Source: Escherichia coli (GTDB taxonomy: Bacteria > Pseudomonadota > Gammaproteobacteria > Enterobacterales > Enterobacteriaceae). From it: 64,000 nucleotides of DNA. The notes under the pieces are model-generated. The model did no database searches, was not told where the DNA came from, and worked only from the letters and a program-made list of their open reading frames with translations. Of the stretch, positions 1-58,460 are shown one piece after another (positions within the stretch are counted from its first letter, which is position 1; each line of letters begins with the position of its first letter). Made by a program: the position numbers and the translations under genes. The DNA is taken from the NCBI RefSeq assembly GCF_030013595.1, contig NZ_CP122768.1; one strand, given 5' to 3'.

Positions 1-232
1 AGCGGCGGCAAAGTGGCAGCAGCTACAACGCGGAGCCGCAGCGTTCTCCATCACATTGGCACGTGGACGCGCAGAACTCTACCCCGAAATGCATGGCACG
101 GTAACAGGCTTTAAAAGCGAGATTGATAATCAGGACTGGATTATTGCGAAAGCCGAGCACACCATTGATAACAGCGGCTTTACCACGCAGCTTGAGCTTG
201 AGGCAAAAATCCCGGAATGGATAGCAGAATGA
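1..232 (+). CDS. 3' fragment of a phage late/tail gene, probably P2 gpD-like (runs off window start)
   Basis: Open frame from window start to TGA at 230-232 (..FTTQLELEAKIPEWIAE*); plus-strand, immediately upstream of an ogr-like gene as in P2 (D then ogr). Identification from position and weak sequence memory only. Confidence 0.4.
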   Translation, partial: AAAKWQQLQRGAAAFSITLARGRAELYPEMHGTVTGFKSEIDNQDWIIAKAEHTIDNSGFTTQLELEAKIPEWIAE

Positions 233-396
233 GACTCTTAAATGTATTAGTCCAGACACGTACTAGCGGGCTAAACGGCACAGTCTTATCTGACCATCTG
301 CCCCTGACACAGAGCAGACGGTCCTTGATCTTACCCACTAATAATGGACGCGCGACTAATATAATTTATTGCTTTTTATTTATACCTCACTGAGAT

Positions 397-1032
397 TTAG
401 CGAGCTAATATATTCAAAGAATTTAACAATTGAGTGTCGAGTGTTTCAGTTGCAGGAATCGGTAATCCATTCGCAATGCGGTAATTTTTCACAGACAGCC
501 TTGTGGATGGCCCCATTATGCCGTCAATATTTCCGTTATAAAATCCCCTGTCCAGCAATGCGAACTGAACTCGCATAATCAATCGCTTACGTTTCTCTGC
601 ATCAGAAGCAAGCCCATTACTCGTACGGTTAACCTCTGAAGTTCCAACAGAACTCGTGTTAGTGGTTCTATTATTATCGTTAGAACGAAGTGCACGCACC
701 GAGGAAGAGGACGATGAGGAACTTGCACCTGAACTTGAAGAACCAGATGAACTTGGTGAGCTGTATGTTTTTGGATAATAGGGGGTACTTCCACCATAGT
801 ATCCACCACCTGATGAGGATCTATGAGAGCTATGGCTCCTATGAGAACTATGGCTTCGATGCCCTGCGATATAAAATGGGACTTCCGTGTTAAGTGGAGC
901 TATCACTAAATCATGCTCATTAAGAGTCATACCAGGTAAATCACTCGCTCCTGTAGATGAATCGCTTGCCCATACAGAATTGTTGAGAGCCAAAAATCCC
1001 GGAAGTAGAGCAGCAAAATTAAACTTTTTCAT
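397..1032 (-). CDS. hxsA: HxsA-type His-Xaa-Ser repeat protein (signal peptide, tandem H-x-S triplets, Ser/Gly/Tyr-rich tract, C-terminal peptidoglycan-binding domain)
   Basis: Translation from MKKFNFAALLPGFLALNNSVWA (Sec-like signal) contains HRSHSSHRSHSSHRS, then SSPSSSGSSSSGASSSSSSSS, then a PG_binding_1-like C-terminus (LLDRGFYNGNIDGIMGPSTRLSVKNYRIANGL). Start ATG overlaps upstream gene stop (ATGA). Confidence 0.8.
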   Translation of the reverse strand: MKKFNFAALLPGFLALNNSVWASDSSTGASDLPGMTLNEHDLVIAPLNTEVPFYIAGHRSHSSHRSHSSHRSSSGGGYYGGSTPYYPKTYSSPSSSGSSSSGASSSSSSSSVRALRSNDNNRTTNTSSVGTSEVNRTSNGLASDAEKRKRLIMRVQFALLDRGFYNGNIDGIMGPSTRLSVKNYRIANGLPIPATETLDTQLLNSLNILAR

Positions 1033-2141
1033 AAAATTGGTCTCGGTGATTGATGAAAACGGCCTTTTGAGGAACTGAAATAGCCAGCACAGGAAGGCTT
1101 CTGAGTACATTCATCACATTCTTTTGGATAGTAATTTTTCCAATCAGAGATCGACTGAACAGCAAGCTCCCTAGCCCTTTCAGGAAGATAACACAAAGGA
1201 TAATTAAAAATTGTCAGAGGTATGCCTGACCTGTATGCAGCGTCTATGGCAGAGATTATTTTCTCACTATAACTACTGTGATCAATGAAGATGGTGGACC
1301 AGTTTTTTCGTGCCCAACCGATAGGCTCCAACCCCATAAGGGAAATCTGATTGATGTTGGAGAACACACGGCCAGCGAATTCTACGATATCATCCAATTC
1401 GGTATAGTTAGCCAGTGTAGGAATAACTCTAAGTTCGATATTAATCCCCAAGTTTCCTGCATTGATTAACCCTTTAACCGTTTCATTAAATGCGCCATCA
1501 CTCCCTACCAGATGATCATGCACAAGTGGTCTTGATGAGTAGAGCGGGATACCAAAGGTGATTTTGATCTTTTTGCTTCGCTTTGCCATTTCCTGTGTAA
1601 AGTTGGTATCAGCAAATTTGCGTCCGTTTGTTAAAACATGTAAAGCAGTATCTGGTGAATTCTCGATGATAAAATCAATGAAGTGAAGGAAGTCATCCCC
1701 ATATAGCAAAGGTTCACCACCGCTGACCCCAACAACTCCGTTCAAGCCAAATGAAGCTATAGCAAGAGCTGATTGGGTAAGTAGCCAGTCATCATTTATT
1801 TTCTTTGGTGGCTGCGAACAAAACAGACACAAGTTATTGCAGCGTTCCGTAACTAAGACAGTATTATGATTGGCTTTGCGTGACAGAATAACGCGTATCA
1901 TATTGCCATTGTTGATTATCCCAATATCTCCATCTTCAATTGACTCAAATAATTCAGTGCTAATAACAGAGAAATCAAAGCATGGTGGAATGGCATCATT
2001 ATTGCCTTCAGCAACTACTAGCAAATTGGGCAAAAAGAATAAAGGGTTCACTGGTTTTTGTTTGCATAACCGATAGAACCCCGTGGGCACGTTCTCTGTA
2101 GAAGCAAAATGAAAGATATCGTTCCTGATAACCTCAGACAT
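1029..2141 (-). CDS. Radical SAM maturase of the His-Xaa-Ser system (HxsB/HxsC-type; which of the two is not resolved)
   Basis: 370 aa ORF with CNNLCLFC (CxxxCxxC radical SAM cluster) and a C-terminal Cys-rich region (CDECTQKPSCAGY); sits between the other rSAM gene and hxsA with overlapping stop/start codons. Confidence 0.8.
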   Translation of the reverse strand: MSEVIRNDIFHFASTENVPTGFYRLCKQKPVNPLFFLPNLLVVAEGNNDAIPPCFDFSVISTELFESIEDGDIGIINNGNMIRVILSRKANHNTVLVTERCNNLCLFCSQPPKKINDDWLLTQSALAIASFGLNGVVGVSGGEPLLYGDDFLHFIDFIIENSPDTALHVLTNGRKFADTNFTQEMAKRSKKIKITFGIPLYSSRPLVHDHLVGSDGAFNETVKGLINAGNLGINIELRVIPTLANYTELDDIVEFAGRVFSNINQISLMGLEPIGWARKNWSTIFIDHSSYSEKIISAIDAAYRSGIPLTIFNYPLCYLPERARELAVQSISDWKNYYPKECDECTQKPSCAGYFSSSKGRFHQSPRPIL

Positions 2142-3522
2142 ATGCCCATCCTTTTAGCATCTCAGCCTTCGAACCACCCTCTGAGATGCAGTTCATCAGA
2201 TACCTGAACATCCCCTTGTGATATTGACAAAACGTTGAACGACTCCTATCACCGACAGGCTCACCCTGTACACTTATGTTCTGGCATGGATCTGAACCAC
2301 AAAATGGTTGATATGCACATGTATCACAACCTGGCAGAGCAAAATTGAACGATGAACTCAATACTGCGTTATAGTAAGGACTATCAGAAAATGATAGCGT
2401 CTTAACTTCACCCGCACTGAACTCCGTTTCAGGATTCACCTTCTGCAACATACGGCTCTCATCGCTACCATATACTCGACCGTCATAATTGAAAAGAATA
2501 CTGTTAAGCACGACTCCACTTGGAGACTTTAAATCCGCATAACCACTAAAACCGGGATTGAAGATCCTTTTCAGATGAATGGAGGCCGAATGTTCCACAA
2601 CCCTTATCCCTTCATTATTAATCTTAAGGATTTCATCTATCAACGAGGCATAGAAGCTGAAGTATTCGTCCATAGAAAAGGTGAAAGAAGCTTTTTGTGC
2701 AAACCCATAGGGACTAACAGGTCGGATAAACATGTCCTTGAGACCAAGAGACAAGTGAGCCTGAACAATCGATTCAGGACGTCTGATAAGCTCTTTAGTA
2801 ACTGTAGTAACCGTTGCAACGCGGCCAGCACCTAAAGAGTGTTTGATAGCCTCTACCCCTGACACTGTTCTACTGTACGCAAGCCCACGACCAAGAATTC
2901 GATTACTGTTGTGAACAACTTCCTCACCATCAAGCGACACAGAGAACGTTATGTTCCGGTCTCTCGACCATTCAATCATATCCTCATTCAAGACAGACAG
3001 ACTTGATGCCACCACCATCTCAAAATTGGTTCTTCCCAGCGTTTCAGCACATTGATCATAGATGCTCTGAATTAAATCAAACCGCAAGAGAGGCTCCCCA
3101 CCCTGTATCTCTATTTTGTAAGGTGGCGTTGATAGTTTTTTAATAGCCGAAATAATATCGGGGATGAGCTCAGGATTTAGGTCGTAACCTGAGGCATTAA
3201 CAGAAGCTCTACTAACCTGGCAATACTTGCATGTATGGTCACAACGTAATGTGGGTACAATCATGAAAATTGGCCTGACAGCCAGTTCATTCATCAATCG
3301 TTTTGCAAAAGCAGAACTTAAAGCATAGGGAGTTATAGCAGATGAGCTTTCACTGGTTATGAAAAGCTTACTTTCTAGCACGTTTGATTGCTCCGAACTA
3401 ATTCGCTCATCAGAAAGATCAATAAGGTCTTGCTCACCAATGAAATGATGAAAACCTGCAAGGTTGCTTATAAACACCTGTCCATTAGGCAATCTGTCAA
3501 AATTAAATGGCATCAATTCCAT
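2134..3522 (-). CDS. Radical SAM/SPASM-type maturase of the His-Xaa-Ser system (HxsB/HxsC-type)
   Basis: 462 aa ORF with CDHTCKYC radical SAM motif and C-terminal auxiliary-cluster cysteines (CDTCAYQPFCGSDPCQ...FCQ); stop overlaps next gene start by 8 nt; start overlaps hxsD stop (TAATG). Confidence 0.8.
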   Translation of the reverse strand: MELMPFNFDRLPNGQVFISNLAGFHHFIGEQDLIDLSDERISSEQSNVLESKLFITSESSSAITPYALSSAFAKRLMNELAVRPIFMIVPTLRCDHTCKYCQVSRASVNASGYDLNPELIPDIISAIKKLSTPPYKIEIQGGEPLLRFDLIQSIYDQCAETLGRTNFEMVVASSLSVLNEDMIEWSRDRNITFSVSLDGEEVVHNSNRILGRGLAYSRTVSGVEAIKHSLGAGRVATVTTVTKELIRRPESIVQAHLSLGLKDMFIRPVSPYGFAQKASFTFSMDEYFSFYASLIDEILKINNEGIRVVEHSASIHLKRIFNPGFSGYADLKSPSGVVLNSILFNYDGRVYGSDESRMLQKVNPETEFSAGEVKTLSFSDSPYYNAVLSSSFNFALPGCDTCAYQPFCGSDPCQNISVQGEPVGDRSRSTFCQYHKGMFRYLMNCISEGGSKAEMLKGWAYV

Positions 3523-3836
3523 TATGAAAGCCTCTCATCAACACTGCGAAGCACTTTATGGACAATAGAGTCTCTCAACGCCCCTGTTTTATGCTGTAGC
3601 TTTTCTCGCAAAGAGTAATCATTAAGCAGCCTATCGAATTCATAAAGGAATTTGGGATTATCGTTTTCAAAAGAGATTATCCAGTGGGAAACGTCTTCAT
3701 GGAGTTTCCATCGAGTAAGCGGAGTCATCCAATATAGACTATTGCGTATAACCCATTCAGAATATAGTTCTTTCTCAAACACTCTTTCGCTCATTGCAAT
3801 TATCTTCCAATACAAATATTCATGATCAGCAACCAC
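3522..3836 (-). CDS. hxsD: HxsD-type small protein carrying the LLNDYxLRE signature
   Basis: 104 aa ORF containing FDRLLNDYSLREKLQ; first gene of the four-gene minus-strand operon. True start may be an internal Met (MSERVF). Confidence 0.75.
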   Translation of the reverse strand: MVADHEYLYWKIIAMSERVFEKELYSEWVIRNSLYWMTPLTRWKLHEDVSHWIISFENDNPKFLYEFDRLLNDYSLREKLQHKTGALRDSIVHKVLRSVDERLS

Positions 3837-3871
3837 TTTAAAGCGGATTTTTCCTATGGCAACAATAATAT

Positions 3872-3974
3872 AACATATCCATAGATATGTTACAGATGCC
3901 TTGTTTCCCGTTGACTAATACATCACAACGTTAGTAATGGCTATCACAATTGTGAACTTCCACTTTTCACACAA
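3872..3974. promoter_or_regulatory. Divergent hxsD/ogr control region with two dyad-symmetric elements
   Basis: AACATAT-N6-ATATGTT palindrome at 3872-3891 and TGTGAA-N9-TTCACA dyad at 3954-3974, both in the 210-bp gap between divergent hxsD and ogr starts. Confidence 0.3.
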
Positions 3975-4046
3975 GACAAGCTGTTAATTGGAATCTGTAT
4001 CAGTACAACTTAGAATATCGGAAGCACCACAGTAAGGGAGGTCGCT

Positions 4047-4307
4047 ATGTTCCGTTGTCCGCTTTGTGGCGCATCCGCCCGAATCCGCACCAGTCGTCCG
4101 GAAAATGATTCAAACACCGTGCGGCAAAAGTATTACCAATGTAACAACCTAGAATGCGGCGTATGCTTCTCAACACTGGAAGCTTTCCATAAATTCACAT
4201 CAAAACACGCCTCCGGCGCTCACTCTTCAGAAGGTATCCCGTGGCATGAACTGCCAGCTTCACACAAAGGAAACAATCAGATGAGTTTGCCCTTACCTCA
4301 AAATTAA
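4047..4307 (+). CDS. ogr: Ogr/Delta-family zinc-finger late-gene transcription activator
   Basis: MFRCPLCGASARIRTSR...YYQCNNLECGVCF matches the P2 Ogr pattern (MFHCPLC..ARTSR...YHQCQNVNCSATF); C-terminally extended relative to P2 Ogr. Confidence 0.75.
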   Translation: MFRCPLCGASARIRTSRPENDSNTVRQKYYQCNNLECGVCFSTLEAFHKFTSKHASGAHSSEGIPWHELPASHKGNNQMSLPLPQN

Positions 4308-4367
4308 CAGGCAGAATTGCCGGAGTAACAAAAAAGAGATAGATTACGCGCGGGTGCCTTTCGGCTG

Positions 4368-4631
4368 ATGGTCGGAGGGAATACCCGAAGGCCAGATGTG
4401 GAAAGGCCCCGGAAAACATTTCTGTTTAACCGAGGCCCTAACCGCATTACCTTGACAAGTGAAAGGTTAGCGCCTCTCCGGAAAAGGAGCAAGTGCTATG
4501 TCGCAAAAATCGCTTACGGCCATCATGTTCTGCGTGACGGCAATCCTCATCATCTGGATGTTGCACGGTTCGCTGTGCGAAATACGGATGAGATTCTGGG
4601 GAGCGGAGTTTGCGGCGTTCTTACAGTGTAA
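4368..4631 (+). CDS. mok-like reading frame overlapping hok (translational coupling frame of a hok/sok locus)
   Basis: 87-codon ORF in a different frame that starts upstream of and overlaps the hok-like frame, the arrangement typical of mok. Confidence 0.4.
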   Translation: MVGGNTRRPDVERPRKTFLFNRGPNRITLTSERLAPLRKRSKCYVAKIAYGHHVLRDGNPHHLDVARFAVRNTDEILGSGVCGVLTV

Positions 4632-4638
4632 GCAGTAA
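4498..4638 (+). CDS. hok: Hok/Gef-family type I toxin, 46 aa
   Basis: ATG at 4498 preceded by GGAGCA; peptide MSQKSLTAIMFCVTAILIIWMLHGSLCEIRMRFWGAEFAAFLQCKQ has one hydrophobic helix and the Hok-type C-x-T...SLCEIR motif; the 5' element GGGTGCCTT (4352-4360) is complementary to AAGGCACCC (4695-4703), resembling tac/fbi pairing. Confidence 0.7.
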   Translation: MSQKSLTAIMFCVTAILIIWMLHGSLCEIRMRFWGAEFAAFLQCKQ

Positions 4639-4724
4639 GGAAACCGCGACGGGGGAGCAATCCCCCGTCAATCGGTTGCCAGGGTAAGGTCGATAAGGCA
4701 CCCTATCTCACAGACATGAACAAC

Positions 4725-4760
4725 AAACCCGCAACGTAAAAACTGCGGGTTTTCTTTTTG
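4725..4760 (+). terminator. Rho-independent terminator downstream of hok
   Basis: aaacccgcaacgtaaaaactgcggguuu hairpin followed by a T-run. Confidence 0.6.
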
Positions 4761-4902
4761 GTGTCCTTACTGACTTGAAACGGTGATCAGACTATAAGAC
4801 AAAGCCCACAATGTAGCGGGCTTACTCCCCTCTCCCTCCACTGAATGTGGACACATGGTGGAACGAAGATATATAAAACATTATAAATCAATCGGTTACT
4901 GA

Positions 4903-4928
4903 AAGAAAAAAGGCCGCAGAGCGGCCTT
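4903..4928 (-). terminator. Rho-independent terminator ending the minus-strand lambdoid gene set
   Basis: aggccgcagagcggcct hairpin with an A-run on plus strand (T-run on minus strand) immediately 3' of the ORF ending at 4949. Confidence 0.55.
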
Positions 4929-23109: not shown

Positions 23110-25581
23110 ATGAGTAAAGTCTTTATTTGCGCCGCCATTCCGGACGAACAGGCAATAAAGGAAGAAGGTGCAGTCGCTGTAGCCACTGCCATTGAAGCCG
23201 GCGACGAACGCCGCGCCCGAGCCAAATTTACCTGGCAATTCCTGGAGCAATATCCGGCTGCTCAGGACTGCGCTTATAAATTTCTTGTTTGCGAGGATAA
23301 ACCCGGCATGCCCCGCCCTGCCATCGACTCCTGGGATACCGAATATATGCAGGAAAACTGCTGGGATGAGGAATCCGCTTCCTTTATTCCGGTCGAACCA
23401 GAATCCGATCCGATGAACGTCAATTTTGACAAGCTGTCCCCTGAAGTACAGAACGCGGTCCTGGTTAAGTTCGACACATGTGAAAACATCACCGTTGATA
23501 TGGTTATTAGCGCACAGGAATTGTTGCAGGAAGACATGGCAACATTCGACGGACATATCGTTGAAGCGTTGATGAAAATGCCAGAAGTTAACGCCATGTA
23601 TCCGGAGCTTAAGTTGCACGCCATTGGGTGGGTTAAGCATAAATGTATTCCTGGTGCTAAATGGCCCGAAATTCAGGCAGAGATGCGCATCTGGAAAAAA
23701 CGTCGCGAAGGTGAACGCAAGGAAACCGGAAAATACACGTCTGTTGTTGATCTCGCCCGCGCCAGAGCCAATCAACAGTACACTGACAATTCAACAGGAA
23801 AAATCAGCCCGGTCATTGCTGCCACTCATCGCGAATACAAGCAGACATGGAAAACACTGGATGACGAACTGGCCTACGCTCTCTGGCCTGGTGATGTGGA
23901 TGCCGGAAACATTGACGGCAGCATCCATCGCTGGGCAAAAAATGAAGTTATCGACAACGACCGCGAAGACTGGAAGCGTATCTCGGCATCAATGCGCAAA
24001 CAGCCTGATGCCCTTCGCTACGACCGCCAGACTATTTTTGGCCTTGTCCGTGAACGTCCGATCGACATTCACAAAGACCCTGTGGCACTGAACAAATACA
24101 TTACTGAATACCTGACTACAAAGGGCGTGTTTGAAGATGAAGGAAGAAATCAGAGCGCAACTGATACTCTCTCGTCGCCAGTACCAGAAACTGATGCAGT
24201 GGAAACGGCAATTCCGGACAACGAAAAAACCGAATGCAAAGTGGAAGTCGAACCATCTGTAGAGCGTGAGGGGCCGTTCTACTTCCTCTTCACCGACAAG
24301 GATGGCGAAAAATATGGTCGCGCAAACAAACTTTCTGGTCTGAATAAGGCGCTGACTGCAGGGGCTACTGAAATCACGAAAGAAGAATATTTTGCCCGTA
24401 AAAACGGTACATACTCAGGTTCACAACAAAATACTGGTGCATCTGACACGACCGCACAACCAGAGCCGGTAAAAGTTACCGCTGACGAAGTAAACAAAAT
24501 TATGCAGGCAGCCAATATCAGCCAGCCTGACGCCGATAAGTTGCTTGCTGTATCACGTGGTGAATTTGTTGCAGGGATTAGCGACCCGAATGATCCGAAA
24601 TGGGTGAAGGGGATTGAAACCCGCGATTCAGTGAATCAGAACCAGCAAGAAACGGAACAGAACGACCAGAAAGCGGAACAAAACAGCCCAAATGCGTTAC
24701 AAAACGAGCCAGAAACGAAACAACCTGAGCCAGTAGCGCAACAGGAAGCGGAAAAAGTCTGCACCGCCTGCGGTCAGACCGGCGGCGGCAACTGCCCTGA
24801 TTGTGGTGCGGTGATGGGCGACGCAACATACCAGGAAACATTCGATGACAAGAACCAGGTTGAAGTTCAGGAAGACGATTCGGAGAAAATGGAAGGCGCT
24901 GAACATCCACACAAAGAGAATGCTGGCAGCGCTCAGGATCACGCCAGCGATAGTGAAACTGGCGAGACGGCAGATCCCTTAATTACGGTGAACGGTCATC
25001 ACGTTATCACATCCACCAGCAGGACGTGTGACCATCTAATGATCGACCTTGAAACCATGGGAAAAAATCCTGATGCCCCGATTATCTCAATAGGTGCAAT
25101 ATTTTTCGATCCGCAAACCGGAGATATGGGACCGGAATTTAGTAAGACTATCGATCTGGAAACTGCTGGCGGAGTCATTGATCGGGACACCATTAAATGG
25201 TGGCTTAAGCAATCACGCGAAGCGCAATCTGCCATTATGACCGATGAAATCCCGTTAGATGATGCACTGTTACAATTGCGGGAATTTATCGACGAAAACT
25301 CCGGTGAATTTTTTGTTCAGGTCTGGGGAAATGGAGCCAACTTCGACAACACGATTTTGCGCCGTTCATACGAACGGCAGGGGATCCCCTGCCCGTGGCG
25401 TTACTACAACGATCGCGATGTACGCACAATCGTTGAGCTGGGGAAAGCCATAGACTTCGATGCCAGAACGGCTATTCCATTCGAAGGTGAGCGCCATAAT
25501 GCACTTGATGACGCCCGTTACCAGGCAAAATACGTTTCAGCAATCTGGCAAAAACTGATCCCGAATCCGGTTGATTTTTAA
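23110..25581 (+). CDS. Large protein with C-terminal DnaQ-like DEDDh 3'-5' exonuclease domain (RecE-position gene)
   Basis: 823 aa; C-terminus has LMIDLETMG (Exo I), WGNGANFDNTIL (Exo II), HNALDDARYQAKY (Exo III); long acidic/Gln-rich linker. Confidence 0.6.
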   Translation: MSKVFICAAIPDEQAIKEEGAVAVATAIEAGDERRARAKFTWQFLEQYPAAQDCAYKFLVCEDKPGMPRPAIDSWDTEYMQENCWDEESASFIPVEPESDPMNVNFDKLSPEVQNAVLVKFDTCENITVDMVISAQELLQEDMATFDGHIVEALMKMPEVNAMYPELKLHAIGWVKHKCIPGAKWPEIQAEMRIWKKRREGERKETGKYTSVVDLARARANQQYTDNSTGKISPVIAATHREYKQTWKTLDDELAYALWPGDVDAGNIDGSIHRWAKNEVIDNDREDWKRISASMRKQPDALRYDRQTIFGLVRERPIDIHKDPVALNKYITEYLTTKGVFEDEGRNQSATDTLSSPVPETDAVETAIPDNEKTECKVEVEPSVEREGPFYFLFTDKDGEKYGRANKLSGLNKALTAGATEITKEEYFARKNGTYSGSQQNTGASDTTAQPEPVKVTADEVNKIMQAANISQPDADKLLAVSRGEFVAGISDPNDPKWVKGIETRDSVNQNQQETEQNDQKAEQNSPNALQNEPETKQPEPVAQQEAEKVCTACGQTGGGNCPDCGAVMGDATYQETFDDKNQVEVQEDDSEKMEGAEHPHKENAGSAQDHASDSETGETADPLITVNGHHVITSTSRTCDHLMIDLETMGKNPDAPIISIGAIFFDPQTGDMGPEFSKTIDLETAGGVIDRDTIKWWLKQSREAQSAIMTDEIPLDDALLQLREFIDENSGEFFVQVWGNGANFDNTILRRSYERQGIPCPWRYYNDRDVRTIVELGKAIDFDARTAIPFEGERHNALDDARYQAKYVSAIWQKLIPNPVDF

Positions 25582-52934: not shown

Positions 52935-53945
52935 TTAGATATGGGTAACGATTTCTTTAATCAGCGGCGGACCTTTAAAAATAAAACCAGAATAAATTTG
53001 CACCAGTGAGGCCCCCGCAGCAATCTTTTCACGCGCAGCGATAACCGAGTCAATGCCGCCAACACCGATGATCGGTAAGCGACCGTTTAATTCCTGTGAC
53101 AAGCGGCGAATAATTTCTGTGCTTTTTAACTGAAGCGGACGACCACTTAAGCCACCGGTTTGATCACAATTTTTCATTCCCTGAACCAGAGAACGATCGA
53201 GCGTGGTATTGGTTGCAATAACGCCATCAATATTATGGCGAACTAAACTATCGGCAACCTGGATCAATTCTTCTTCAGAAAGATCCGGCGCGATCTTCAC
53301 TGCGATCGGCACATATTTATGGTGCATCGCTTGCAAATCATTTTGCTTATTTTTAATCGCGGTTAAGAGATCATCCAGCGCTTCGCCATATTGCAGTGTG
53401 CGTAGTCCTGGGGTATTCGGCGATGAAATATTGATGGCGATATATCCCGCATAAGCATAGATTTTTTCCATACAAATCAGATAGTCATCTTTACCCTGCT
53501 CCACCGGCGTATCTTTATTTTTGCCGATGTTAATACCCAGGACGCCATCATAATGGGCTTTTTTTACGTTCTCTACGAGGTTATCAACGCCAAGATTATT
53601 AAAGCCCATACGGTTGATCAAACCTTCGGCATCTACCAGACGAAAGAGACGCGGCTTGTCATTACCTGGCTGTGGACGTGGCGTGACGGTACCGATCTCG
53701 ATCGATCCAAATCCCATCGCGCCTAACGCGTCAATGCACTCCCCGTCTTTATCAAGACCGGCTGCCAGACCAAGCGGATTTTTAAACGTCAGGCCCATGC
53801 AGTTAACAGGTTTCGCAGGCACTTTCTGCCGCACCAGTGCTTCAAACGGCGTTCCTGTAATACGGCGTAATTGCTGAAAAGTAAACTCATGAGCACGCTC
53901 TGGATCGAGCTGGAAAAGGGCTTTACGAACGAAGGGGTAGTACAT
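52935..53945 (-). CDS. pyrD: Dihydroorotate dehydrogenase (quinone)
   Basis: 336 aa from [21 protein letters not shown]. Confidence 0.95.
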
Positions 53946-54181
53946 GAACTCTCCTGGATTCCCGGTGTGCAAACCGGGGGCGTATTATGTGCGAGTTCGG
54001 ACCAAAAGGGAATTGACCTGTGGCAATAAATAGCAAACGTTTTCTTATTGCGCTTTTTTTATGCTTTTTTTGGCTTTTCTTCCTCAGATAAATCATTTCG
54101 ACTCGCGGACGCCCTCTGTCAGACTGACCGAATTGTTATCAATGTTAACAAAACAAGAACAATTGGTTATAAGGAGAGAGT

Positions 54182-54757
54182 ATGCGTGTCATCACCCTGG
54201 CGGGTAGTCCTCGCTTTCCTTCTCGTTCCAGCTCCTTGCTGGAATATGCGCGGGAAAAACTAAATGGCCTGGATGTAGAGGTTTATCACTGGAATCTGCA
54301 AAACTTCGCCCCGGAAGATCTACTTTATGCTCGTTTCGATAGTCCGGCACTCAAAACCTTCACCGAACAGCTGCAACAGGCCGATGGGCTGATTGTCGCC
54401 ACGCCTGTGTATAAAGCCGCCTATTCCGGTGCGCTGAAAACCCTGCTCGACCTACTGCCAGAACGTGCGTTGCAAGGCAAAGTGGTGCTACCGCTGGCGA
54501 CGGGCGGTACGGTGGCCCATCTGCTGGCGGTCGATTATGCCCTTAAGCCAGTTTTAAGTGCGCTGAAAGCCCAGGAGATCCTGCACGGCGTGTTTGCCGA
54601 TGACTCACAGGTGATTGATTACCACCACAAGCCGCAGTTCACGCCAAATCTGCAAACCCGTCTTGATACCGCGCTGGAAACTTTCTGGCAGGCGCTGCAC
54701 CGCCGCGATATTCAGGTTCCCGATCTTCTGTCTCTGCGAGGTAATGCCCATGCGTAA
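54182..54757 (+). CDS. ssuE: NADPH-dependent FMN reductase SsuE
   Basis: 191 aa; first gene of ssuEADCB. Confidence 0.95.
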   Translation: MRVITLAGSPRFPSRSSSLLEYAREKLNGLDVEVYHWNLQNFAPEDLLYARFDSPALKTFTEQLQQADGLIVATPVYKAAYSGALKTLLDLLPERALQGKVVLPLATGGTVAHLLAVDYALKPVLSALKAQEILHGVFADDSQVIDYHHKPQFTPNLQTRLDTALETFWQALHRRDIQVPDLLSLRGNAHA

Positions 54758-55708
54758 CATCATTCAACTGGCGCTGGCGGGATTACTTAGCGTCTCTACG
54801 ATTGCGGTTGCTGCAGAATCCTCTCCTGAAGCGTTACGTATAGGCTATCAGAAAGGCAGTATTGGTATGGTGCTGGCAAAAAGCCACCAGTTACTGGAAA
54901 AACGCTATCCGCAAACCAAAATCTCCTGGGTGGAGTTCCCGGCTGGCCCACAGATGCTGGAGGCGTTAAACGTTGGCAGTATTGATCTCGGCAGTACCGG
55001 GGATATTCCGCCAATCTTTGCCCAGGCTGCCGGGGCTGATTTGGTATACGTGGGCGTCGAGCCGCCGAAGCCCAAAGCCGAAGTGATTCTGGTGGCAGAT
55101 AACAGCCCGATCAAAACCGTAGCCGATCTTAAAGGTCACAAAGTTGCCTTTCAGAAAGGTTCCAGCTCGCACAATCTTTTACTACGCGCACTACGCCAGG
55201 CCGGGCTTAAATTCACGGATATCCAGCCCACTTACCTGACACCTGCCGATGCCCGCGCCGCGTTCCAGCAAGGTAACGTCGACGCCTGGGCTATCTGGGA
55301 TCCCTACTACTCCGCTGCATTATTACAGGGCGGCGTGCGGGTGCTAAAAGACGGCACCGATCTCAATCAGACCGGATCGTTTTATCTGGCTGCCCGTCCG
55401 TATGCAGAAAAAACGGCGCATTTATTCAGCGTGTGCTGGCAACCTTTAGTGAAGCCGATGCGTTAACCCGCAGCCAGCGCGAGCAAAGCATCGCTTTACT
55501 GGCAAAAACAATGGGCTTACCGGCACCGGTGATTGCCTCTTACTTAGATCATCGCCCTCCTACCACCATCAAACCGGTTAACGCCGAGGTTGCCGCCTTA
55601 CAGCAGCAAACGGCAGATCTGTTTTATGAAAACCGTCTGGTGCCGAAAAAAGTCGATATTCGCCAGCGCATCTGGCAGCCCACTCAACTGGAAGGAAAAC
55701 AATTATGA
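54750..55708 (+). pseudogene. ssuA: ssuA (aliphatic sulfonate binding protein) interrupted by an apparent -1 frameshift in an A-run
   Basis: Frame from ATG 54750 stops at 55464-55466 (..PYAEKTAHLFSVCWQPLVKPMR*); homology continues in the +1 frame (LATFSEADALTRSQ.. to 55708). One extra A in the A6 run at 55408-55413 would restore a 319-aa product. Confidence 0.6.
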
Positions 55709-56850
55709 GTCTGAATATGTTCTGGTTTTTACCGACCCACGGTGACGGGCACTATCTGGGAACGGAAGAAGGTTCACGTCCGGTTGATCACGGTTATCTG
55801 CAACAAATTGCGCAAGCGGCGGATCGTCTGGGCTATACCGGTGTGCTGATCCCAACGGGGCGATCGTGTGAAGATGCGTGGCTGGTGGCGGCGTCGATGA
55901 TCCCGGTGACGCAGCGGCTGAAGTTTCTTGTCGCCCTGCGCCCCAGCGTAACCTCACCTACCGTTGCCGCTCGCCAGGCCGCCACGCTTGACCGTCTCTC
56001 AAATGGTCGTGCGTTGTTTAATCTGGTCACAGGCAGCGATCCACAAGAGCTGGCAGGCGACGGCGTGTTCCTTGATCATAGCGAGCGCTACGAAGCCTCG
56101 GCGGAATTTACCCAGGTCTGGCGGCGCTTATTGCTGGGGGAAACCGTCGATTTCAACGGTAAACATATTCATGTGCGGGGAGCCAAACTGCTCTTCCCGC
56201 CGATTCAACAGCCGTATCCTCCGCTTTACTTTGGCGGATCGTCAGACGTCGCCCAGGAGCTGGCGGCAGAACAAGTTGATCTCTACCTCACCTGGGGCGA
56301 ACCGCCGGAACTGGTTAAAGAGAAAATCGAACAAGTGCGGGCGAAAGCTGCCGCGCATGGACGCAAAATTCGTTTCGGTATTCGCCTGCATGTGATTGTT
56401 CGTGAAACTAACGACGAAGCGTGGCAGGCCGCCGAGCGGTTAATCTCGCATCTTGATGATGAGACTATCGCCAAAGCACAGGCCGCATTCGCCCGGACGG
56501 ATTCCGTAGGACAACAGCGGATGGCGGCGTTACATAACGGCAAGCGCGACAATCTGGAGATTAGCCCCAATTTATGGGCGGGCGTTGGCTTAGTGCGCGG
56601 CGGTGCCGGGACGGCGCTGGTGGGCGATGGTCCGACGGTCGCCGCGCGAATCAACGAATACGCTGCACTTGGCATCGACAGTTTTGTGCTTTCGGGCTAC
56701 CCGCATCTGGAAGAAGCGTATCGGGTTGGCGAGTTGCTGTTTCCGCATCTGGATGTTGCCATCCCGGAAATACCCCAGCCACAACCGCTGAATCCGCAAG
56801 GCGAAGCGGTGGCGAATGATTTTATCCCCCGTAAGGTCGCGCAAAGCTAA
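55705..56850 (+). CDS. ssuD: Alkanesulfonate monooxygenase SsuD
   Basis: 381 aa; synteny. Confidence 0.95.
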
Positions 56851-56860
56851 GGAAGAAATA

Positions 56861-57652
56861 ATGGCAACGCCAGTGAAGAAGTGGTTATTGCGCGTTGCCC
56901 CCTGGTTTTTACCGGTGGGCATCGTGACGGTGTGGCAACTAGCCTCCTCAGTTGGCTGGCTGTCGACGCGTATTTTGCCCTCTCCGGAAGGAGTGGTGAC
57001 GGCGTTCTGGACGCTCTCCGCCAGCGGCGAATTGTGGCAGCATCTGGCGATCAGCTCCTGGCGGGCGTTGATTGGCTTTTCAATTGGCGGATCGCTGGGC
57101 TTGATTTTGGGACTGATTAGCGGGCTATCTCGCTGGGGAGAACGGCTGCTGGATACCTCCATTCAAATGTTGCGCAACGTGCCGCATCTGGCGCTGATCC
57201 CGCTGGTGATTTTGTGGTTTGGCATTGATGAATCCGCAAAAATCTTTCTGGTGGCGCTCGGCACGCTATTCCCCATTTATATCAACACCTGGCACGGCAT
57301 CCGTAATATCGATCGCGGTCTGGTGGAAATGGCGCGTAGCTATGGATTATCCGGCATACCGCTGTTTATCCATGTGATCCTGCCTGGTGCCCTGCCCTCC
57401 ATTATGGTCGGCGTGCGTTTTGCGTTGGGCCTGATGTGGCTGACGCTGATTGTTGCCGAAACCATTTCTGCCAATTCCGGCATTGGTTATCTGGCGATGA
57501 ATGCGCGGGAGTTTCTGCAAACGGACGTGGTGGTGGTCGCCATTATTCTTTACGCCCTGCTCGGCAAACTGGCTGACGTCAGCGCACAGCTGTTAGAGCG
57601 CCTCTGGTTGCGCTGGAACCCGGCTTATCATTTGAAGGAGGCCACGGTATGA
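56861..57652 (+). CDS. ssuC: Alkanesulfonate ABC permease SsuC
   Basis: 263 aa from [15 protein letters not shown]. Confidence 0.95.
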
Positions 57653-58416
57653 ATACTGCTCGTCTGAACCAGGGCACGCCATTGTTGCTCAATGCAGTAA
57701 GCAAACATTACGCGGAAAATATCGTTCTGAACCAACTGGATTTACATATTCCGGCTGGTCAGTTTGTGGCGGTGGTGGGCCGCAGCGGTGGTGGCAAAAG
57801 TACCCTGCTGCGCCTGCTGGCAGGTCTGGAAACGCCAACCGCTGGCGATGTGTTAGCGGGTTCCACACCGCTGGCTCAGATTCAGGAAGACACGCGAATG
57901 ATGTTTCAGGATGCGCGTCTGCTGCCGTGGAAATCGGTGATTGATAACGTTGGGTTAGGCCTTAAAGGCCAGTGGCGCGATGCCGCGCGTCGGGCGTTGG
58001 CTGCAGTAGGACTGGAGAATCGCGCAGGGGAATGGCCTGCCGCACTTTCAGGCGGGCAGAAACAGCGAGTGGCGCTGGCAAGAGCGTTGATTCATCGACC
58101 GGGTTTATTGTTGCTTGATGAACCGCTCGGGGCGCTGGACGCCTTAACGCGACTCGAGATGCAGGATTTGATTGTGTCACTTTGGCAGGAGCACGGCTTT
58201 ACCGTACTGTTGGTGACGCATGATGTTAGCGAAGCGGTGGCAATGGCTGACCGGGTGTTGTTAATTGAAGAGGGAAAAATTGGTCTGGATTTGACGGTGG
58301 ATATCCCCCGTCCGCGCCGGTTAGGGTCGGTGCGATTAGCGGAGCTGGAAGCGGAAGTGTTGCAACGGGTGATGCAGCGTGGTGAATCTGAAACTCGCCT
58401 GAGAAAACAGGGGTAA
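57649..58416 (+). CDS. ssuB: Alkanesulfonate ABC ATPase SsuB
   Basis: 255 aa; Walker [10 protein letters not shown]. Confidence 0.95.
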
Positions 58417-58420
58417 ATTC

Positions 58421-58460
58421 CCGAATGGCGGCGCTATTGCCGCCATTCGGTTATTTTTTA
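58421..58460. terminator. Bidirectional terminator between ssuB and pepN
   Basis: ccgaatggcggc..gccgccattcgg hairpin followed by T-run. Confidence 0.7.

Follow-up and report, generated by a model that had tools for sequence, protein, structure and literature searches.

The gene ssuA in the 64-kb stretch of Escherichia coli chromosome analysed here (the window) is broken by a shift of frame in a short run of adenines, and this raises the question whether the strain has lost the binding protein of its sulfonate importer or whether one base has gone missing in sequencing or assembly. In E. coli, ssuEADCB encodes the system for import and desulfonation of a wide variety of alkanesulfonates except taurine, which is handled by TauABC and TauD; SsuA is the substrate-binding protein of this system, a class II binding protein whose two globular domains close on the ligand (PMC6906117). 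In the window, the complete ssuE-A-D-C-B operon lies at 54182–58416, flanked by pyrD, which has an Rfam-recognised leader, and by pepN, and ssuE, ssuD, ssuC and ssuB are all intact (Table 1). An Rfam scan of the 64-kb window returned the PyrD leader as the sole match at the gathering threshold and no match bearing on ssuA, and a scan for tRNA genes in the same 64 kb gave none. On the evidence set out below, the lesion is very probably a real, heritable 1-bp deletion in ssuA (A7 to A6) that has been passed down clonally in one E. coli sub-lineage.

Table 1. Features of the window, with positions counted from its first base
Feature	Position	Strand	Basis or remark
HxsA, His-Xaa-Ser repeat protein	397–1110	-	NCBIfam
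HxsC	1029–2141	-	NCBIfam
HxsB	2134–3522	-	NCBIfam
HxsD	3522–3836	-	NCBIfam
PyrD leader	53940–54013	-	Rfam RF02373, 97.9 bits
ssuE (NADPH-dependent FMN reductase), intact	54182–54757	+	stop overlaps ssuA start
ssuA pseudogene (periplasmic aliphatic-sulfonate-binding protein)	54750–55708	+	959 nt versus 960; DNA equals 2012C-4221 ssuA once an A is added
Truncated ssuA product, 238 aa (221 native and 17 out-of-frame residues)	54750–55466	+	TAA at 55464–55466
A6 run, site of the 1-bp deletion	55408–55413	+	A7 in K-12 and nearest relatives
Orphaned C-terminal frame of ssuA, putative ORF, 91 aa, GTG start	55433–55708	+	ORF list; separate 91-aa gene in Logan loci
ssuD (FMNH2-dependent alkanesulfonate monooxygenase), intact	55705–56850	+	ATG overlaps native ssuA stop (ATGA)
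ssuC (permease), intact, 263 aa	56861–57652	+	codon 67 (57059–57061) TGG here, TAG in sister lineage
ssuB (ATPase), intact	57649–58416	+	followed by a terminator-like hairpin at 58421–58450

The window gene runs from an ATG at 54750 to a TGA at 55706–55708, a length of 959 nt that is not divisible by three, and in the list of open reading frames it appears as two pieces in separate frames. The homopolymer within it counts exactly six A. Adding one A to this run gives a 960-nt frame that encodes a 319-aa SsuA, and the DNA of this restored frame shows no difference from the annotated ssuA of E. coli 2012C-4221 (WP_025210358.1). The original prediction had placed the frame break in this gene and at this run of six A and had held that a seventh A would restore an uninterrupted SsuA of 319 residues; gene, site and type of lesion were all correct. 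Aligned to K-12 SsuA, the restored protein agrees in 314 of 320 positions, the stop counted among them, and it also aligns with the E. coli SsuA of PDB entry 2x26 over residues 25–319 (E = 6e-193), so that both full-length homology and position in ssuEADCB place the restored frame in the SsuA family. In the window itself, an uninterrupted frame for both SsuA domains is absent: the break falls at codon 222, where AAC (Asn) becomes ACG (Thr), and 17 wrong residues result before the TAA stop. Read from its sequence, the window gene is a pseudogene of the SsuA family and not a functional member. Compared with ssuA of K-12 (b0936, PDB 2x26), it is the same gene in the same operon order with pepN downstream of ssuB; the two loci differ in that K-12 carries A7 where the window carries A6, leaving the window without the last 98 residues of SsuA, and in that K-12 has the elf fimbrial operon between ssuE and pyrD whereas the window does not.

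The loss of one base from a mononucleotide run is a textbook outcome of replication slippage, and it is most likely by slippage on this homopolymer that A7 became A6. Translation of the resulting allele would lose the frame at codon 222 and end 17 codons on, giving a product that would keep residues 1–221 and lack residues 222–319 of 319. A chain that lacks its last third should fail to fold stably, and an SsuABC importer deprived of SsuA should no longer take up aliphatic sulfonates. We infer this loss of SsuABC-dependent uptake from the function that SsuABC is assigned in E. coli and from an ssuA knockout in Xanthomonas citri. Eichhorn and colleagues are likewise said to have found, in 2000, that deletion of ssuA, ssuB or ssuC in E. 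coli abolishes the use of these sulfonates. Although ssuE, ssuD, ssuC and ssuB are intact, the strain should therefore fail on non-taurine sulfonates as sole sulphur source, while taurine uptake via TauABC would be unaffected; the strain is predicted to grow normally on sulphate and on taurine but not on non-taurine sulfonates. The finding is of use chiefly for annotation and quality control: it calls for ssuA in this strain to be annotated as a pseudogene and marks the strain as a predicted non-user of aliphatic sulfonates other than taurine, and it leaves the understanding of the Ssu system unchanged. Effects on the rest of the operon are conceivable as well. Ribosomes on the mutant allele stop 238 nt earlier than on native ssuA, and any translational coupling between ssuA and ssuD is lost in the frameshifted allele because the start codon of ssuD overlaps the native stop of ssuA; ssuDCB may be expressed at a lower level, owing to lost coupling or to polarity. 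A GGAAGGA motif of ssuD's own lies directly upstream of the ssuD start codon.

The immediate relatives of the window give the background against which the missing base has to be judged. The nearest genomes belong to HCP5S3_I2 and LCP30S3_I5, both isolated from pig faeces in the United Kingdom. Over the 59,095 columns in which the window aligns with HCP5S3_I2, the closest complete genome, there are 35 substitutions, 31 of which fall in a prophage, and one indel, which is the A-run of ssuA; in alignments of the window ssuA to three close relatives, the sole gap again lies inside this run. The aligned region contains 78 long homopolymers (59 of length six, 16 of length seven and 3 of length eight), and the other 77 agree with HCP5S3_I2, so that the surroundings are free of further homopolymer indels. 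In sister sets on the same background, namely HCP5S3_I2 and a locus from read set SRR33896404 (L023), A7 is read at the site, so that sequence of the window type does not lead to its systematic under-calling.

The same lesion recurs in other data. The exact 238-aa truncated product is recorded on 23 contigs across NCBI and the Logan assemblies of public read sets, and the exact 91-aa C-terminal fragment on 17 contigs, the same number as that search gives for the truncated product. The loci of three of the 23 contigs were retrieved, from three separate sequencing runs in two archives (SRR19716120, ERR14334243 and ERR14362488). All three have A6 and are 100% identical to the window over 4.9–6.7 kb, and each of them has ssuE, ssuD, ssuC and ssuB at full length, with pyrD likewise complete unless the contig end cuts it; the lesion has thus been regained from separate sequencing data. 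The intact protein of the same allele is found on 113 contigs, and the frameshifted form makes up about 13–17% of all records of the allele. A share of this size in a rare allele points to a clade that inherited the lesion and not to random error. Against this, the 23 contigs could stem from repeat sequencing of very few isolates. Among complete E. coli genomes, ssuA is present in 5,416 of 5,426, and six of them match the window gene except for one gap. With two probes, A6 was found in none of 471 RefSeq complete genomes that have the window's flanks and in none of 3,604 that have K-12-type flanks, at least 4,075 testable genomes in all, the roughly 1,300 others having different flanking variants; because none of the at least 4,075 carries A6, the allele lacks confirmation from a finished genome.

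Length variation at the run extends beyond this clade. The original prediction had also pointed to other E. coli ssuA sequences as the comparison by which the break could be judged; across the 21 loci in which the length of the run was measured, K-12, 2012C-4221 and HCP5S3_I2 have A7, and the window and the three loci identical to it (L004–L006) have A6. A6 was also found on a divergent allele (L007–L009), whose ssu operon is just 90% identical to that of the window, and in K-12 derivatives (L017–L021), and A8 was found in loci L010–L015, on backgrounds up to 137 substitutions apart. Public assemblies thus hold A6 on three backgrounds and A8 on several, and part of this variation is assembly error. 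The A-run is most aptly seen as a weak hotspot of mutation and, at the same time, a hotspot of sequencing error. It resembles phase-variable contingency loci in that a mononucleotide run within a coding sequence turns the frame off when its length changes, with both a loss (A6) and a gain (A8) of one base seen; it differs from them in that the run is only seven bases long, in that every complete genome tested has A7 and in that some of the variants are assembly errors. The run is at most a candidate phase-variable locus.

Altogether, the window ssuA is an ordinary lineage-specific pseudogene that most likely arose by a one-base slip in a short A-run, a kind of lesion that is already well known. 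A full-text literature search for an ssuA frameshift in Escherichia coli returned a pan-genome paper that merely lists ssuA, as an 'extended-core' gene (PMC12595684), and the remaining titles concern other organisms or topics. The same paper reports an rlmF pseudogene in strain ECOR44 with a poly-A tract of 7 A versus 6 A (PMC12595684), which is likewise a single-base change in a short A-run that turns a conserved core gene into a strain- or lineage-specific pseudogene. The two cases differ in the gene and in the direction of the change, an insertion in rlmF and a deletion in ssuA, and for ssuA the allele has been shown to recur in separate read sets and the run to vary on several backgrounds.

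The sister lineage carries a different knockout of the same importer. In HCP5S3_I2, whose ssuA is intact, ssuC (23356–24147 of locus L003) has an internal stop and a pseudogene annotation; the stop comes from a G to A change at window position 57060 that turns TGG into TAG (SsuC W67*). The assembly collection lists the corresponding 66-aa SsuC fragment in 31 blocks, and the allele is present in two complete genomes of pig isolates. The L023 locus has this fragment at 3501–3701 and an intact ssuA with A7; over 7.2 kb, only the W67* substitution and the A-run differ between it and the window. In the loci examined, ssuA A6 and SsuC W67* are mutually exclusive.

Upstream of the operon, the window departs from K-12 at 54045–54113, where 69 unrelated bp replace 7,087 bp of K-12 (997581–1004667) that hold the elfADCG-ycbUVF fimbrial operon; K-12-like sequence upstream of the ssuE ATG amounts to 68 bp only. 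Of 5,398 complete genomes, 1,352 have the same pyrD-ssuE junction. We considered whether absence of the elf operon might have removed a Cbl-dependent ssu promoter and so exposed the ssu genes to neutral decay, and rejected this as a lineage-specific cause because the junction occurs in so many genomes and junction-bearing relatives have intact ssu genes. A different arrangement at the usual place of the elf operon is seen in a K-12-derived A6 locus on a 4.0-Mb contig (L020, GCA_047152125.1): about 400–2100 upstream of ssuE there are a TetR-family regulator and a GFP-family protein, both recognised by Pfam matches, and an IS1 transposase, and the strain is apparently an engineered laboratory one. 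Its ssu operon is otherwise without substitution or gap relative to MG1655, and A6 in this locus may also be a real mutation.

How firmly the A6 allele can be read as a mutation depends on the rival explanation that the missing A is a homopolymer error of sequencing or assembly and that the strain truly has A7 and an intact ssuA. That error at this very run does occur follows from K-12-derived sequences. For the K-12 allele, the A6 product appears in 317 index blocks of the assembly collection, and among five K-12-derived A6 loci, all with ssu operons at most one substitution from MG1655, three (GCA_047157925, GCA_949811765 and GCA_041399765) have broken neighbours, in the form of a split usher gene, an ssuD fused to ssuC and a split ssuB, together with 2–4 extra gap columns in 4.2 kb, a pattern typical of miscalled homopolymers that marks these assemblies as rich in errors. 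The lack of A6 in the probed RefSeq complete genomes speaks for the same explanation. For the window, however, the identical A6 allele comes with no other break from three separate sequencing runs, the run is the one indel in 59 kb in which all other long homopolymers agree with the nearest relative, sister read sets on the same background read A7, and the frameshifted share of the records of one rare allele is that of a clade, all of which makes an error here improbable. At the A7 run of ssuA, real mutations and long-read homopolymer errors look alike, and it is the state of the surroundings that tells them apart; by this measure the window passes. Intact neighbours and intact other homopolymers, combined with agreement between independent read sets, therefore make a workable test at such runs. 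Both options left by the original prediction, a real loss of function and a homopolymer error, were well founded, and recurrence in separate runs and clean surroundings favour the real mutation. A real A6 allele could in principle still be expressed usefully by recoding, through a -1 slip of the lysine tRNA or through addition of one A by RNA polymerase, in which case the frameshift would be leaky or regulatory. Re-reading of base 55412, or one A added to the mRNA, would indeed restore the wild-type A219-E220-K221-N222-G223, and A-runs are a classic substrate for both kinds of slippage, much as in programmed -1 frameshifting and transcriptional slippage in dnaX and IS elements, where an A-rich stretch also allows a one-base slip to restore the frame. 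Unlike those systems, ssuA has neither a stimulatory structure (folding of the 67 nt downstream is on a par with that of shuffled sequence, z = -0.06) nor a conserved frameshifted arrangement; relatives are in frame with A7, which is ancestral and overwhelmingly common, so that nothing has selected recoding signals, and the incoming frame offers no canonical X XXY YYZ heptamer, nor the sequence upstream of the run a Shine-Dalgarno-like motif. We rejected the run as a programmed ribosomal frameshift site on these grounds. Efficient transcriptional slippage requires about nine or more A or T, and a run of six is shorter than those known to slip efficiently; rescue of ssuA by slippage should be marginal, at about 1% or less, and useful expression by this route is very unlikely indeed.

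A further explanation accepts the deletion as real and asks whether it is more than simple drift: SsuABC may have been lost repeatedly in this lineage, by relaxed selection, for instance in a gut niche poor in oxygen and rich in sulphur, or because its loss was favoured. The near-identical sister sub-lineage with its independent SsuC W67* and intact ssuA fits this idea, as do the number of records of the W67* allele, its presence in two complete pig-isolate genomes and the mutual exclusion of the two lesions; in addition, the SsuD monooxygenase needs O2 and should be useless in the anaerobic gut. These are, on the other hand, only two events, noticed after the fact, and the contig counts probably reflect oversampled clones; other genomes with the same ssuA allele (2012C-4221 and ST2747) have intact ssu genes, and loss of the ssu promoter, which would have supplied a lineage-specific cause, had to be dropped given how common the pyrD-ssuE junction is. 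We regard repeated loss of the importer as possible, if doubtful. The stronger form of the idea, in which loss of SsuABC in the clonal group is repeated and non-random, loss of uptake is specifically tolerated or favoured while SsuE and SsuD are kept, and the A7 run serves as a revertible mutational switch, appears unlikely to us. What the ssuA knockout in one lineage and the ssuC knockout in its sister offer is a small, testable hint that sulfonate uptake is dispensable in the clonal group, alongside the reading that we prefer, a single inherited 1-bp deletion in ssuA.

The remainder of the window holds several features apart from the ssu locus. From about 4907 to 26900 it contains what the annotation of the aligned relative suggests to be a lambdoid, Rac-like prophage, with genes for terminase, portal, holin, endolysin, a DNA methyltransferase, antiterminator Q, a ParDE toxin-antitoxin pair, racR/ydaS/ydaT, dicB and an exonuclease; its integrase adjoins yccA. 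The 31 prophage substitutions relative to HCP5S3_I2 cluster at 23619–24585, inside the 3'-5' exonuclease gene, and this clustering in the sequence suggests a recombination patch. At 1–4906, the part of the window without alignment to HCP5S3_I2, there is a complete His-Xaa-Ser radical-SAM cluster (397–3836, minus strand), all four genes of which score above the NCBIfam curated cut-offs. Between this cluster and the packaging genes of the prophage lies an ORF for an 86-aa zinc-finger protein (4047–4307, plus strand) whose NCBIfam hit, a DNA-binding transcriptional regulator, is weak (43 bits against a cut-off of 116) and which we take to resemble the Ogr/Delta late activators of P2-like phages.
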